64,000 nt of DNA, taken from the sequence record KX009778; one strand, written 5' to 3'. Origin of the DNA: Escherichia phage UFV-AREG1. The notes under the pieces are model-generated. The model saw only the letters and a list, made by a program, of their open reading frames with translations. It was not told where the DNA came from and ran no database searches. Below are positions 57,785 through 61,904 of the stretch, in pieces. Position numbers and translations under genes: made by a program. How positions within the stretch are numbered: position 1 is the stretch's first letter; each line of letters starts with the position of its first letter.

Positions 57785-60700
57785 ATGGCTACTTTAAAAC
57801 AAATACAATTTAAAAGAAGCAAAACTGCAGGAGCACGTCCTGCCGCTTCAGTATTAGCCGAAGGTGAATTGGCTATAAATTTAAAAGACCGCGTACTTTT
57901 TACTAAAGATGACCAAGGAAATATCATTGATCTGGGTTTTGCTAAAGGCGGTAGCATTGACGGGAATGTTATTCATATAGGAAATTATAATCAAACTGGT
58001 GATTATACTTTAAATGGAACCTTCACTCAGACTGGTAATTTTAATTTAACTGGTATTGCTCGAGTAACTCGCGATATTATTGCTGCTGGGCAGATTACGA
58101 CTGAAGGCGGAGAATTTATTACAAAAAGTTCAGGTACAGCACATGTTCGTTTTCATGATTCCGCCGACCGTGAACGCGGTATTATTTTTTCTCCTGCTAA
58201 TGACGGTTTAACTACACAAGTAGTTAACATCAGAGTTCAAGATTACAAAGCTAGTTCAGAAAGCACTTTCGCTTTTAATGGAAATGGTTTGTTTTCTTCA
58301 CCAGAAGTTTTTGGGTGGAAATCTGTATCAACTCCCGTAATTTATACTAATAAAGTTATTACAAATGGTAAAGTTGTCGGCGATTATGATATCTATTCAA
58401 TGGCCAATAATAATTCTGACACAGATAAAAACTATTTGCGCGTTGTACGTACCAACCCAGCGGCCGCAATGCTCCATGAAATTTGTGAAAATAACGGCAT
58501 CAGTTGGTATTCTGGTTCAACCCCTACTGTTTTCATGTTGTCTTTTGCTTATTCAGGTGGTTTTCAAGCTGGGCATTCGATTGCAGTAGGTATGGAATCA
58601 GCAGGGCCTATGACGTATTCAGCCTTAGGTAAAGGTTCTATTGCTTTGGGTGATAATGATACCGGATTAAAATGGTATCAAGATGGTTATTTCTATGTAG
58701 TAAACAATGGTACGAGAACTTTCCTTTATAGTCCTGAATCAACCGTAAGCCTTAGAAAAATGGTTATGGGTTATTCTGTAAATGGCAATGATTTAACTAC
58801 TCCTCCTACTGAAAACTATGCTCTCGCTACTGTTGTTACTTACCATGATAATAATGCGTTTGGAGATGGTCAGACTCTTTTAGGATATTACCAAGGTGGT
58901 AATTATCATCATTATTTCCGCGGTAAGGGTACCACAAACATTAATACTCATGGCGGTTTGCTAGTTACTCCTGGTAATATTGACGTTATTGGTGGTTCAG
59001 TTAATATTGATGGTCGTAATAATGCTTCTACGCTGATGTTTAGAGGTAACACAACTGGTAACAGTTCAGTTGATAATATGACAATTTCTGTATGGGGTAA
59101 TACCTTTACTAATCCTAGTGAAGGCACCCGTAAAAATGTCATGGAAATTTCTGACGCAACTAGTTGGATGAGCTATATTCAAAGACTTACTACCGGCGAA
59201 GTAGAAATGAACGTCAATGGTTCATTTGAATCATCCGGTGTTACTGCTGGAAATAAAGGAGTTCACACAACAGGCGAAATTTCATCTGGGGCTGTGAATG
59301 CGCTTCGTATTTGGAACGCAGATTATGGAGCTATTTTTAGACGTTCAGAAGGTAGTCTTCATATTATTCCAACTGCTTATGGTGAAGGTAAACATGGTGA
59401 TATCGGTCCACTTCGCCCGTTTAGTATGGCTTTAGATACTGGTAAAGTTACTATTCCAGATTTACAATCAAGTTACAATACGTTTGCTGCTAACGGTTAT
59501 ATTAAATTTACTGGTCACGGCGCGGGCGCTGGTGGTTATGATATTCAATATGTTCAAGCAGCTCCTATTTTCCAGGAAATCGATGATGACGCAGTAAGTA
59601 AATATTATCCTATTGTTAAACAGAAGTTTTTAAACAGTAAAGCTGTTTGGTCTTTAGGTACTGAAATTAATTCGGGTACATTTGTTTTACACCATATCAA
59701 AGAAGATGGATCACAAGGCCATACGTCTCGTTTTAATCAAGATGGTACTGTTAACTTCCCGGATAACGTTCTGGTCGGCGGGGGCGAAGCTGCTATTGCT
59801 CGTAATGGTAATATTTTCTCGGATATTTGGAAAACGTTTACTTCAGCAGGAGACATTACAAATATTCGCGATGCAATAGCTACTCGTGTTGCTAAAGAAG
59901 GCGATACGATGACCGGCACTCTTTGGATTAATAAAGATGCTGCTGGGATAGTTCTTAATCCTCCTTTAGCTAGTGATTCATCATTTATTCGTTCTGATAC
60001 GGCCGGGGAGAATAATTGGTATATTGGTAAAGGCGGTGCCGACAATGGTCTAGGTTTTTACAGTTACATTACACAAGGCGGTGTATACATAACAAATACC
60101 GGTGAAATATCGCTTTCTCCTCAAGGACAAGGAACATTTCATTTTAATAGAGACCGCCTTTATATAAATGCTAGTCAATGGGTTGCACATAAATCTGGCG
60201 CTTGGGGCGACCAATGGGGCTTAGAAGCTCCTGTATTTGTAGATTTTGGTAGTGTCGGCAATGACTCCTATTATCCTATTATTAAAGGAAAATCTGGTAT
60301 TACCAATGAAGGATATATATCGGGTGTAGATTTCGGTATGCGTCGTATCACTAACCAATGGGCTCAGGCTATTATTCGTGTTGGTAACCAGGGAAATGCT
60401 AGCGATCCGCAAGCTATCTTCGAATTCCACCATAATGGAAACATGTACGTTCCTGACATGGTTAAAGCTGGAGTAAGAATATCAGCTGGTGGAGGTGATC
60501 CTGCATGGACAGGCGCATGTGTTGTTATTGGTGATAATGATACTGGTTTAGTCCATGGTGGTGACGGCCGAATCAATATGGTTGCAAATGGAGTGCATAT
60601 TGCTTCATGGTCGGCCGCTTACCAACTCCATGAAGGTCTTTGGGATACTACTGGTGCTTTGTGGACTGAGCAAGGAAAAGCTATTATTTCTTTTGGTCAT

Positions 60701-61090
60701 TTAATTCAACAAAGCGATGCCTATTCAACATTTGTCCGTGATGTTTATGTCCGTTCTGATATTCGTGTTAAAAAAGACCTTGTTAAATTTGAAAATGCTT
60801 CTGAGAAGCTTTCTAAAATTAACGGTTACACTTATATGCAGAAGCGAGGCCTAGATGAAGAAGGCAATCAGAAATGGGAACCTAACGCCGGTTTGATAGC
60901 TCAAGAAGTTAAAGCTATTTTACCAGAATTAGTTGAAGGTGACCCTGATGGTGAAGCTTTACTTCGTTTGAACTATAACGGTATAATTGGTTTAAATACA
61001 GCTGCAATCAATGAGCATACTGCAGAAATTGCAGAACTTAAATCAGAAATCGAAGAACTTAAAGCATTAATTAAATCATTGTTAAAATAA
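57785..61090 (+). CDS. 37: Long tail fibre distal subunit gp37 with C-terminal intramolecular chaperone-like domain
   Basis: 1101 aa; C-terminal SDIRVKK motif (from about 60755) resembling the S-D-x-R-x-K autoproteolytic chaperone motif, then coiled-coil. Confidence 0.9.
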
Positions 61091-61098
61091 TAATAAGA

Positions 61099-61112
61099 GG
61101 GGCTTCGGCCCC
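61099..61112 (+). terminator. Hairpin ggggc-ttcg-gcccc after gene 37
   Basis: GC stem with UUCG loop; no clear T run, so may be an RNA stability element. Confidence 0.4.
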
Positions 61113-61124
61113 TTGGAGGTTTAT

Positions 61125-61904
61125 ATGGCAGTAGCAGGACCGTGGGTAGGATCGTCTGCAGTAATTAATACAGGACAAAATTGGATGGGTGGCGCGGCCC
61201 AACGATTAAGAATGGGTGCTCCATTTTGGATGAGTAATATGATAGGTCGATCTGTTGAAGTAATTCACACGCTTGGAGCAGACCATAACTTCAATGGTCA
61301 ATGGTTCCGAGATAGATGTTTTGAGGCAGGTAGTGCACCTATAGTGTTTAATATTACTGGAGATTTAGTATCATATTCTAGAGATGTTCCTTTATTCTTC
61401 ATGTACGGAGATACACCTAATGAATACGTTCAACTGAACATACACGGCGTAACGATGTATGGTCGTGGTGGGAATGGTTGGGCCGCTGGTGCAATTGGAG
61501 CATCTGATGGCGGTGTATGTATCCAGAATGATATAGGTGGACGTCTGCGAATTAATAATGGCGGAGCTATTGCCGGTGGCGGCGGTGGCGGCGGTGGTTA
61601 TTCACAAGCCAACAACTGGGCGGGAAAATATGTTTGTGGCGGCGGTGGCGGTCGTCCATTCGGATTAGGCGGAAATAATGGTGCTCGATGGCCTGGTGGT
61701 AATGCTAGTTTGACGTCTCCGGGTGCTGGCGGTAATACTGGTACAAGGTATTATGCAGGTGACGGTGGTGAAGTTGGTCAGCCAGGACAATATGCTAATC
61801 CAGGTGCTGGTTATTCAACACCTCCGACAAGTCCTGGTGCTGCTGTAGCAGGATCAGCTCCAACATGGCAGAATGTTGGAGCAATATATGGTTCAAGAGT
61901 ATAA
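61125..61904 (+). CDS. 38: Receptor-recognising tail fibre adhesin gp38 (T2-type, glycine-rich motifs)
   Basis: 259 aa from ATG at 61125 (GGAGG RBS at 61115..61119); poly-Gly runs (GGGGGGGG, GGGGG) separating short variable segments. Confidence 0.85.

Follow-up and report, generated by a model that had tools for sequence, protein, structure and literature searches.

The receptor-binding tip of T2-type long tail fibers, in which the distal subunit gp37 ends in a self-cleaving chaperone and is followed by a poly-glycine adhesin, gp38, has been described before, biochemically in T2 (1986) and structurally in S16 (2018) and PP01 (2026). According to PMC7917993, gp37 of S16 trimerizes before it cuts off its own C-terminal 113 residues at DLNVS^SDRRIKK, exposing the surface on which gp38 docks, and PMC3157838, citing Drexler 1986, gives C-terminal cleavage followed by capping with gp38 for the gp37 of T2 and T6. 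The adhesin of PP01 consists of a beta-helix, a sandwich of the poly-glycine-II (PGII) type, and five receptor loops named A to E (PMC12892980). Our study concerns the corresponding module of Escherichia phage UFV-AREG1, analyzed within a window of 64,000 nucleotides (nt) from sequence record KX009778, in which positions 57,785 to 61,904 run exactly from the start of gene 37 to the stop of gene 38. This region is very probably the distal receptor-binding tip of a long tail fiber of the T2/S16 type, and nothing in the analyses that we ran contradicts this reading. The module is already known: it belongs to T2-type biology, and both proteins have been deposited and carry such annotations in RefSeq and UniRef. 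The gp37 product is identical over its full length to RefSeq YP_009281583.2 of UFV-AREG1, named 'long tail fiber protein distal subunit', and gp38 is likewise identical to YP_009281584.1 of the same phage, 'tail fiber protein; host specificity / receptor-recognizing protein gp38'. No new mechanism is added by the present analysis, and its value is practical only.

Relationship to described tail fiber tips

The genome backbone of UFV-AREG1 is that of a Tequatrovirus, its DNA being about 95-96% identical to that of HY01, PEC04, and Sf24. Within the T2 type, the window falls into the PP01/AR1/PEC04 subtype and outside the T2 subtype. At the level of amino acids (aa), gp37 is 92.5% identical to its counterpart in PEC04, 86% to that of AR1, and 83% to that of PP01, but only 35% to that of T2; the best tail fiber match in our searches of phage collections, among the matches listed, which did not include UFV-AREG1 itself, was PEC04 at 95.5%. 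PP01 and AR1, which have O157 hosts, also encode a gp38 of 259 aa with the same glycine-rich motifs, and the chaperone domain and tip of their gp37 are nearly identical to those of the window. The gp38 of the PP01 genome record shares 95.8% overall identity with that of UFV-AREG1 and carries several N-terminal substitutions. A gene 38 that lies directly downstream of a gp37 ending in the chaperone is an arrangement common to the window, T2, S16, PP01, AR1, and PEC04.

An earlier note on this DNA, made from its letters and open reading frames (ORFs), had called the module a T2-type tip, and our Pfam scan agrees with that assignment, since T2 and S16 show the same pair of Pfam architectures as the window. 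T2 has Peptidase_S74 at the C-terminus of gp37, with an SDIRLK motif, and a gp38 made of GP38 plus Gp38_N; S16 also combines a gp37 carrying Peptidase_S74 with a gp38 carrying GP38 and Gp38_N. However, the gp37 of T2 is 1341 aa long, its chaperone domain is shorter and lacks the long terminal heptad helix, and its gp38 has an N-terminal domain of another subtype and other loops. The receptors of T2 are FadL and OmpF. PP01 gp38 works together with T2 gp37 only after exchange of its N-terminal 113 aa (PMC12892980).

The complex of the S16 tip with gp38 (PDB 6F45) is the structural paradigm for the module of the window. The two share one architecture, in which gp37 forms a trimeric tip and ends in a chaperone of the self-cleaving kind, and gp38 combines a tryptophan-prong N-terminal domain, a beta-helix, and a PGII sandwich. 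In contrast to UFV-AREG1, S16 belongs to the genus Gelderlandvirus, has a gp37 of only 749 aa, bears other loops on gp38, and is cut in the context S^S instead of the predicted R^S. Judged from the alignment, identity between S16 and residues 909-1101 of the window gp37 is roughly half.

The C-terminal chaperone domain of gp37

Over its full length, gp37 matches PHROG 1699 (E = 0), a family named 'long tail fiber protein distal subunit'. The earlier note had described a protein of 1101 aa in which an SDIRVKK motif, taken for the S-D-x-R-x-K signature of C-terminal chaperone domains, is followed by about 110 residues including a heptad-like coiled coil, and every part of this description was upheld. 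The motif starts at residue 991, so that 111 residues extend from S991 to the C-terminus, 104 of them beyond the motif. The profile search for Peptidase_S74 that the note had suggested returned PF13884 at residues 991-1050 (E = 2.9e-12; 47.1 bits vs. a gathering score of 22; profile positions 1-57 of 58). The last 200 residues of gp37 were aligned with 15 homologues whose identity goes as low as 26%; in these 16 sequences, S991, D992, and K996 are invariant, as are G1014, G1036, IAQEV at 1038-1042 (part of GLIAQEV), and P1047; these invariant residues correspond to the S74 signature. The underlying search with the 200-aa C-terminus found 19 proteins, mostly fragments, which are enough for an alignment and no guide to distribution.

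Structural comparisons point in the same direction. A sequence search of the PDB aligned the gp37 domain with the MyRF ICA structure 7DC3 (E = 0.004), placing S991 at the site of the Ser-to-Ala construct (S587A) and K996 at K592. It has been shown that this Ser-Lys dyad is catalytic and indispensable both in MyRF (S587/K592) and in endoNF (S911/K916) (PMC8326128). An AlphaFold2 (AF2) model of the 200-aa fragment, built on the 16-sequence alignment, gave predicted local distance difference test (pLDDT) values of 66-95 for the chaperone domain, and at E < 0.1 a Foldseek search with it against the PDB retrieved only 7DC3 (MyRF ICA; E = 8.5e-6, TM-target 0.62), 4UW8 (L-shaped fiber of T5 with its chaperone), and 3GW6 (endoNF IMC). 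The coiled coil of the earlier note lies at the true C-terminus, where the last 27 residues follow a heptad register with isoleucine at a (I1075, I1082, I1089, I1096) and leucine at d (L1085, L1092, L1099), except for H1078, the first d position. A role of the C-terminal helix in trimerization is known from the structure paper on MyRF ICA (PMC8326128). The match to PF13884, the invariant Ser, Asp, and Lys, the predicted fold, and the homology to S16 support the identification of the gp37 C-terminus as a Peptidase_S74 intramolecular chaperone domain.

More than 15 tail fiber PHROG families that otherwise differ from one another end in the same module of about 110 residues, which is consistent with a portable folding module. 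Outside the T2/S16-type tips, endoNF (3GW6), the T5 pb1 L-shaped tail fiber (4UW8), and MyRF ICA (7DC3) share with the window the S-D-x-R-x-K dyad, the fold, the trimerizing helices, and the placement after a trimeric beta-structure, whereas their passenger domains (a sialidase, the T5 fiber tip, and a eukaryotic transcription factor, respectively) are unrelated to gp37. Unlike in these three, cleavage of gp37 would additionally create a surface onto which a separate adhesin docks.

Predicted cleavage site and distal tip

Residues 909-1101 of gp37 align to the S16 gp37 tip (6F45_A) with E = 1.8e-43, and GDNDTGL and DVYVR of UFV-AREG1 line up with GDNDTGL and DLNVS of S16. Because DVYVR^SDIRVKK thereby aligns with the cut site DLNVS^SDRRIKK of S16, gp37 is predicted to be cut at R990^S991, which would yield a mature form of 990 aa and 106.5 kDa and a released fragment of 111 aa and 12.35 kDa. 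Residues 909-990, the distal tip of mature gp37, end in the DVYVR strand, the predicted docking surface for the N-terminal domain of gp38.

The gp38 adhesin

The reading of gp38 as an adhesin with poly-glycine runs, which had also been put forward in the earlier note, is supported at the level of both domains and residues. The protein matches Pfam GP38 (PF05268) over the whole profile (positions 1-218 of 218; E = 7.9e-74, 248.6 bits vs. 25) and Gp38_N (PF21721) likewise (1-40 of 40; E = 8.1e-21, 74.2 bits vs. 25), which supports its membership in the T2-type adhesin family. Its best match in the PDB is 9V85, an sfGFP fusion of PP01 gp38's receptor-binding domain (RBD; E = 3e-141), to which it aligns without gaps; the second, to which it also aligns, is S16 6F45_D (E = 2.6e-53). 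Between residues 41 and 259, only three of 219 positions differ from the crystallized PP01 RBD, namely G208R, G213D, and N236S. Glycine accounts for 31% of residues 110-259, with uninterrupted runs at 151-158 and 172-176. At the other end of the protein, W7, W20, and W35 match W7, W20, and W36 of S16, which PMC7917993 describes as prongs that enter the gp37 tip.

Receptor prediction and host range

The gp38 loops are an established determinant of host range in PP01, T2 and T6 relatives (PMC12892980, PMC3157838, PMC6027323), in line with the role that the earlier note had given to this module. A comparison of the variable segments with adhesins of known receptor, which the note had proposed, showed that loops A, B, C, and E are the same as in the OmpC-binding gp38 of PP01. 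Since gp38 shares its loops with the adhesins of PP01 and AR1, its receptor is likely to be OmpC of the E. coli O157 type. AR1 is an OmpC-dependent O157 phage. For PP01 gp38, binding to OmpC(O157) through loops D and E has been demonstrated: G208 in loop D and Y230 in loop E cross-link to OmpC(O157) loops 5 and 7, respectively, and loop E is the main specificity loop (PMC12892980). The source of UFV-AREG1 itself was cowshed wastewater, with E. coli O157:H7 as the isolation host (PMC5064094).

In practical terms, the module marks UFV-AREG1 as an O157 phage of the PP01/AR1 type with predicted dependence on OmpC. This may be of use in choosing phage cocktails with different receptors and in host-range engineering by swaps of gp38 loops, in which the N-terminal domain of gp38 must be kept matched to the gp37 tip.

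Proposed working of the tip

Taken by analogy with these relatives, gp37 would be made as a precursor of 1101 aa, whose C-terminal 111 residues (Peptidase_S74) would trimerize via the terminal coiled coil and nucleate folding of the trimeric, beta-structured tip. The Ser991-Lys996 dyad would then cut between R990 and S991, after which the chaperone would depart, leaving exposed a flat tip with DVYVR at its end, and gp38 would cap this tip. The N-terminal domain of gp38, with W7, W20, and W35, would plug into the gp37 tip, and the adhesin would offer five loops from its PGII sandwich to the host receptor. For UFV-AREG1, we infer the cleavage, the incorporation of gp38 into the virion, and the identity of the receptor.

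This picture has some limits. The residue before the predicted cut is Arg in UFV-AREG1 and Ser in S16. In the AF2 monomer model, residues 1-90 of the fragment, which make up the tip, have pLDDT < 50, as is to be expected of a monomer; the model is unreliable there and unusable for a trimeric tip, and for this reason the docking surface for gp38 is predicted solely from the alignment. A comparison of 20 adhesins (15 members of the 90% cluster and five reference phages) marks D213 of gp38 (61761-61763), a residue of the glycine-rich motif that follows loop D, as unique. Finally, the genome paper of UFV-AREG1 mentions neither gp37, gp38, nor OmpC, and discusses neither a chaperone domain nor the receptor.

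Alternative readings of the module

The alternative that fares best retains the module as described and changes only the receptor: G208R, G213D, and N236S could shift or broaden binding from O157-type OmpC to a different OmpC variant or porin. In PP01, residue 208, which is part of loop D, cross-links to OmpC loop 5 (PMC12892980), neighboring single substitutions such as T207I gave better adsorption in evolved PP01 (PMC6027323), D213 has the singular standing noted above, and, in addition to O157:H7, lysis of O111 and of one more E. coli strain by UFV-AREG1 has been reported (PMC5064094). However, the four loops shared with PP01 remain unchanged, and infection by PP01 needs gp38 residues Y159, Y209, and A228 together with the conformation of loop E (PMC12892980), all three of which are kept in UFV-AREG1, as is Y230. 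Deletion of G208 in PP01, or its change to Ala, leaves infectivity unaffected (PMC12892980), and the gp38 of AR1 has both R208 and S236. Position 213 is Gly in PP01 and AR1 and Asn in T2 and S16; therefore, Gly is not obligatory there. On balance, we consider a receptor other than O157-type OmpC unlikely. It is similarly doubtful that R208 in loop D and the unique D213 alter which OmpC variants gp38 accepts, a change that could explain the reported activity on non-O157 strains such as O111; if true, it would represent a natural case in which a PGII core residue, and not one in a loop, tunes host range.

Returning to the predicted cleavage of gp37, it could be argued that the S74-like domain stays in the mature fiber, either as a degenerate, non-cleaving form or as part of the tip, and that gp38 binds elsewhere. 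The Arg before the predicted cut speaks for this reading, but the S74 signature is invariant, both in its catalytic Ser, Asp, and Lys and in its remaining residues. PP01, AR1, and PEC04 have an almost identical chaperone domain, and the S16 domain, for which release is reported, shares about 50% identity with that of the window. Moreover, DVYIR^SDGRLK in the Yersinia T4-like (fPS) phages has been interpreted as a cut site too (PMC7917993), and processing of T2 and T6 gp37 is documented (PMC3157838). Retention of the domain is thus very improbable.

The remaining alternative takes T4 as its model. T4 resembles the window in gene position, in the N-terminal part of gp37, and in an internal Gp34_trimer-like domain. 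Beyond these, the earlier note had stated that the module differs from T4, and this holds for both proteins: in our Pfam scan, T4 gp37 carries Collar (PF07484) and Phage_fiber (PF03335), which go with a receptor-binding tip of its own, and lacks S74, whereas the window gp37 had no match to PF07484 or PF03335, so that a T4-type tip was not found. T4 gp38, an unrelated protein of 183 aa with no Pfam match, contrasts with the PF05268 member encoded in the window; PMC12892980 describes it as a chaperone for assembly that is absent from the virion, and the T4 RefSeq note calls the T2-type gp38 'unrelated' and an adhesin. That the gp38 of UFV-AREG1 is an assembly chaperone only, left outside the virion while gp37 itself binds the receptor, has in its favor a gene position equal to that of T4 gene 38, between 37 and t, but this has next to no chance of being correct for a protein that is unrelated to T4 gp38, lies three of 219 residues from an adhesin RBD crystallized and cross-linked to OmpC, and accompanies a gp37 without the T4 tip domains.

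The shaft of gp37

Upstream of the T2/S16-type tip, the gp37 shaft contains two segments of distinct character. Residues 151-300 are 46-64% identical to PEC04, AR1, and PP01, whereas the flanks reach 90-100%, and their best match in the phage collections, at 86% aa identity, was to EAWsc9, ECML-359, and TH41. This segment looks like a recombinational mosaic patch; besides it, small insertions and deletions distinguish gp37 from its counterparts in PP01 and AR1. The second segment, residues 447-547, matches PF21446 (E = 8.1e-8, 33.2 bits vs. 27), aligns to the T4 gp34 structures 4UXE, 5NXF, and 9X3R with E values of about 1e-12, and is homologous to the C-terminal trimerization domain of gp34. 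Therefore, the proximal and distal half-fibers have one module in common.

Locus layout, gene starts, and transcription signals

The tail fiber block follows the canonical late arrangement of T-even phages on the + strand, and its order, 34-35-36-37-38-t, is common to the window, T2, PP01, AR1, and S16. Table 1 collects the coordinates of the genes and of the features discussed above. Genes 37 and 38 also contain small ORFs in other frames or on the opposite strand, which were rejected as by-products of the long, well-supported coding sequences.

Table 1. Genes, protein segments, and nucleic acid signals of the UFV-AREG1 tail fiber region (window positions).
Feature	Position	Strand	Basis or remark
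Gene 34 (gp34)	52058-55930	+	1290 aa; ORF listing
Gene 35 (gp35)	55939-57057	+	372 aa; ORF listing
T4 late-promoter-like TATAAATA, upstream of gene 36	57089-57096	+	Exact motif search by script
Gene 36 (gp36)	57120-57776	+	218 aa; ORF listing
Gene 37 (gp37, long tail fiber distal subunit precursor)	57785-61090	+	1101 aa, 118.8 kDa; ATG ORF
Divergent shaft segment of gp37, aa about 151-300	58235-58684	+	Identity comparison
Gp34_trimer-like domain in gp37 shaft, aa 447-547	59123-59425	+	Pfam PF21446
Distal tip of mature gp37, aa 909-990, ending in DVYVR strand	60509-60754	+	Alignment to 6F45_A
Predicted scissile bond R990^S991 (both codons)	60752-60757	+	Alignment to S16 cut site
Intramolecular chaperone / Peptidase_S74 domain, aa 991-1101, 12.35 kDa	60755-61087	+	Pfam PF13884, AF2, Foldseek
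Long C-terminal alpha-helix, aa 1064-1100, predicted trimerizing coiled coil	60974-61084	+	AF2 helix 163-199, pLDDT 88-95
Hairpin GAGGGGC-UUCG-GCCCCUU (CUUCGG tetraloop type), gap between genes 37 and 38	61097-61114	+	Read from sequence
Shine-Dalgarno GGAGG of gene 38	61115-61119	+	5 nt ahead of ATG 61125
Gene 38 (gp38, T2-type tail fiber adhesin)	61125-61904	+	259 aa, 26.2 kDa
gp38 N-terminal attachment domain, aa 1-40, W7/W20/W35	61125-61244	+	PF21721
Receptor loop A, aa 119-124, WAAGAI	61479-61496	+	PP01 loop limits; same as PP01
Poly-glycine run G151-G158 (8 Gly, PGII core)	61575-61598	+	Kept in PP01, AR1, T2, S16
Receptor loop B, aa 161-170	61605-61634	+	Same as PP01
Poly-glycine run G172-G176 (5 Gly)	61638-61652	+	Sequence and alignment
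Receptor loop C, aa 184-189, NNGARW	61674-61691	+	Same as PP01
Receptor loop D, aa 204-209, NTGTRY	61734-61751	+	R208 for PP01 G208; Y209 kept
Receptor loop E, aa 225-231, NPGAGYS	61797-61817	+	Same as PP01, including A228 and Y230
Holin t	61935-62591	+	218 aa; ORF listing
asiA	62592-62864	opposite strand	90 aa; ORF listing

Genes 37 and 38 are separated by an intergenic spacer of 34 nt (61091-61124), which holds a hairpin and the Shine-Dalgarno sequence of gene 38. The start that is found mechanically for gene 38 is TTG 61113, which would give a protein of 263 aa, whereas the form of 259 aa given in the earlier note begins at ATG 61125. We rejected the former and chose the latter, because GGAGG precedes the ATG, because PEC04, PP01, and AR1 are annotated with the same 259-aa start, and because the TTG falls inside the hairpin, in its 3' arm.

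The RNA of 61080-61135 folds with -16.7 kcal/mol (z = -2.2), and the hairpin between genes 37 and 38 may have a putative function in RNA stability or processing. A second hairpin with a CUUCGG tetraloop is located at 57061-57082, after gene 35 in the gap between genes 35 and 36, and is followed by a run of T and by the TATAAATA at 57089. Several more hairpins of the CTTCGG/CCGAAG kind, their stems rich in G+C, are present in other parts of the window, such as those near 7007, 9951, 14042, 27141, 31059, and 31939.

Within 51-63 kb, the only other + strand copy of TATAAATA is at 52017, before gene 34. This distribution of the motif suggests that 36-37-38-t are probably expressed as one late transcript starting at the 57089 motif, to which promoter function is ascribed from what is known of T4. 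A scan for sigma-70 promoters gave 25 candidates vs. 19.1±4.8 in shuffled sequences, no excess, and a scan for terminators gave seven vs. 4.4±2.5, again no excess, the two obvious CUUCGG hairpins aside.

The G+C content is 0.49 at 61500-61999, compared with about 0.35-0.40 in the neighboring genes, and the GC skew there is strongly positive. The abundance of Gly (GGN) codons in gp38 accounts for this local rise, and a foreign origin need not be invoked. In the hinge connector gp35, residues 59-127 match the Pfam family ILEI (PF15711; E = 2.4e-8, 34.8 bits vs. a cutoff of 27), the interleukin-like EMT inducer / FAM3 domain, which is an unexpected family for a phage fiber hinge.

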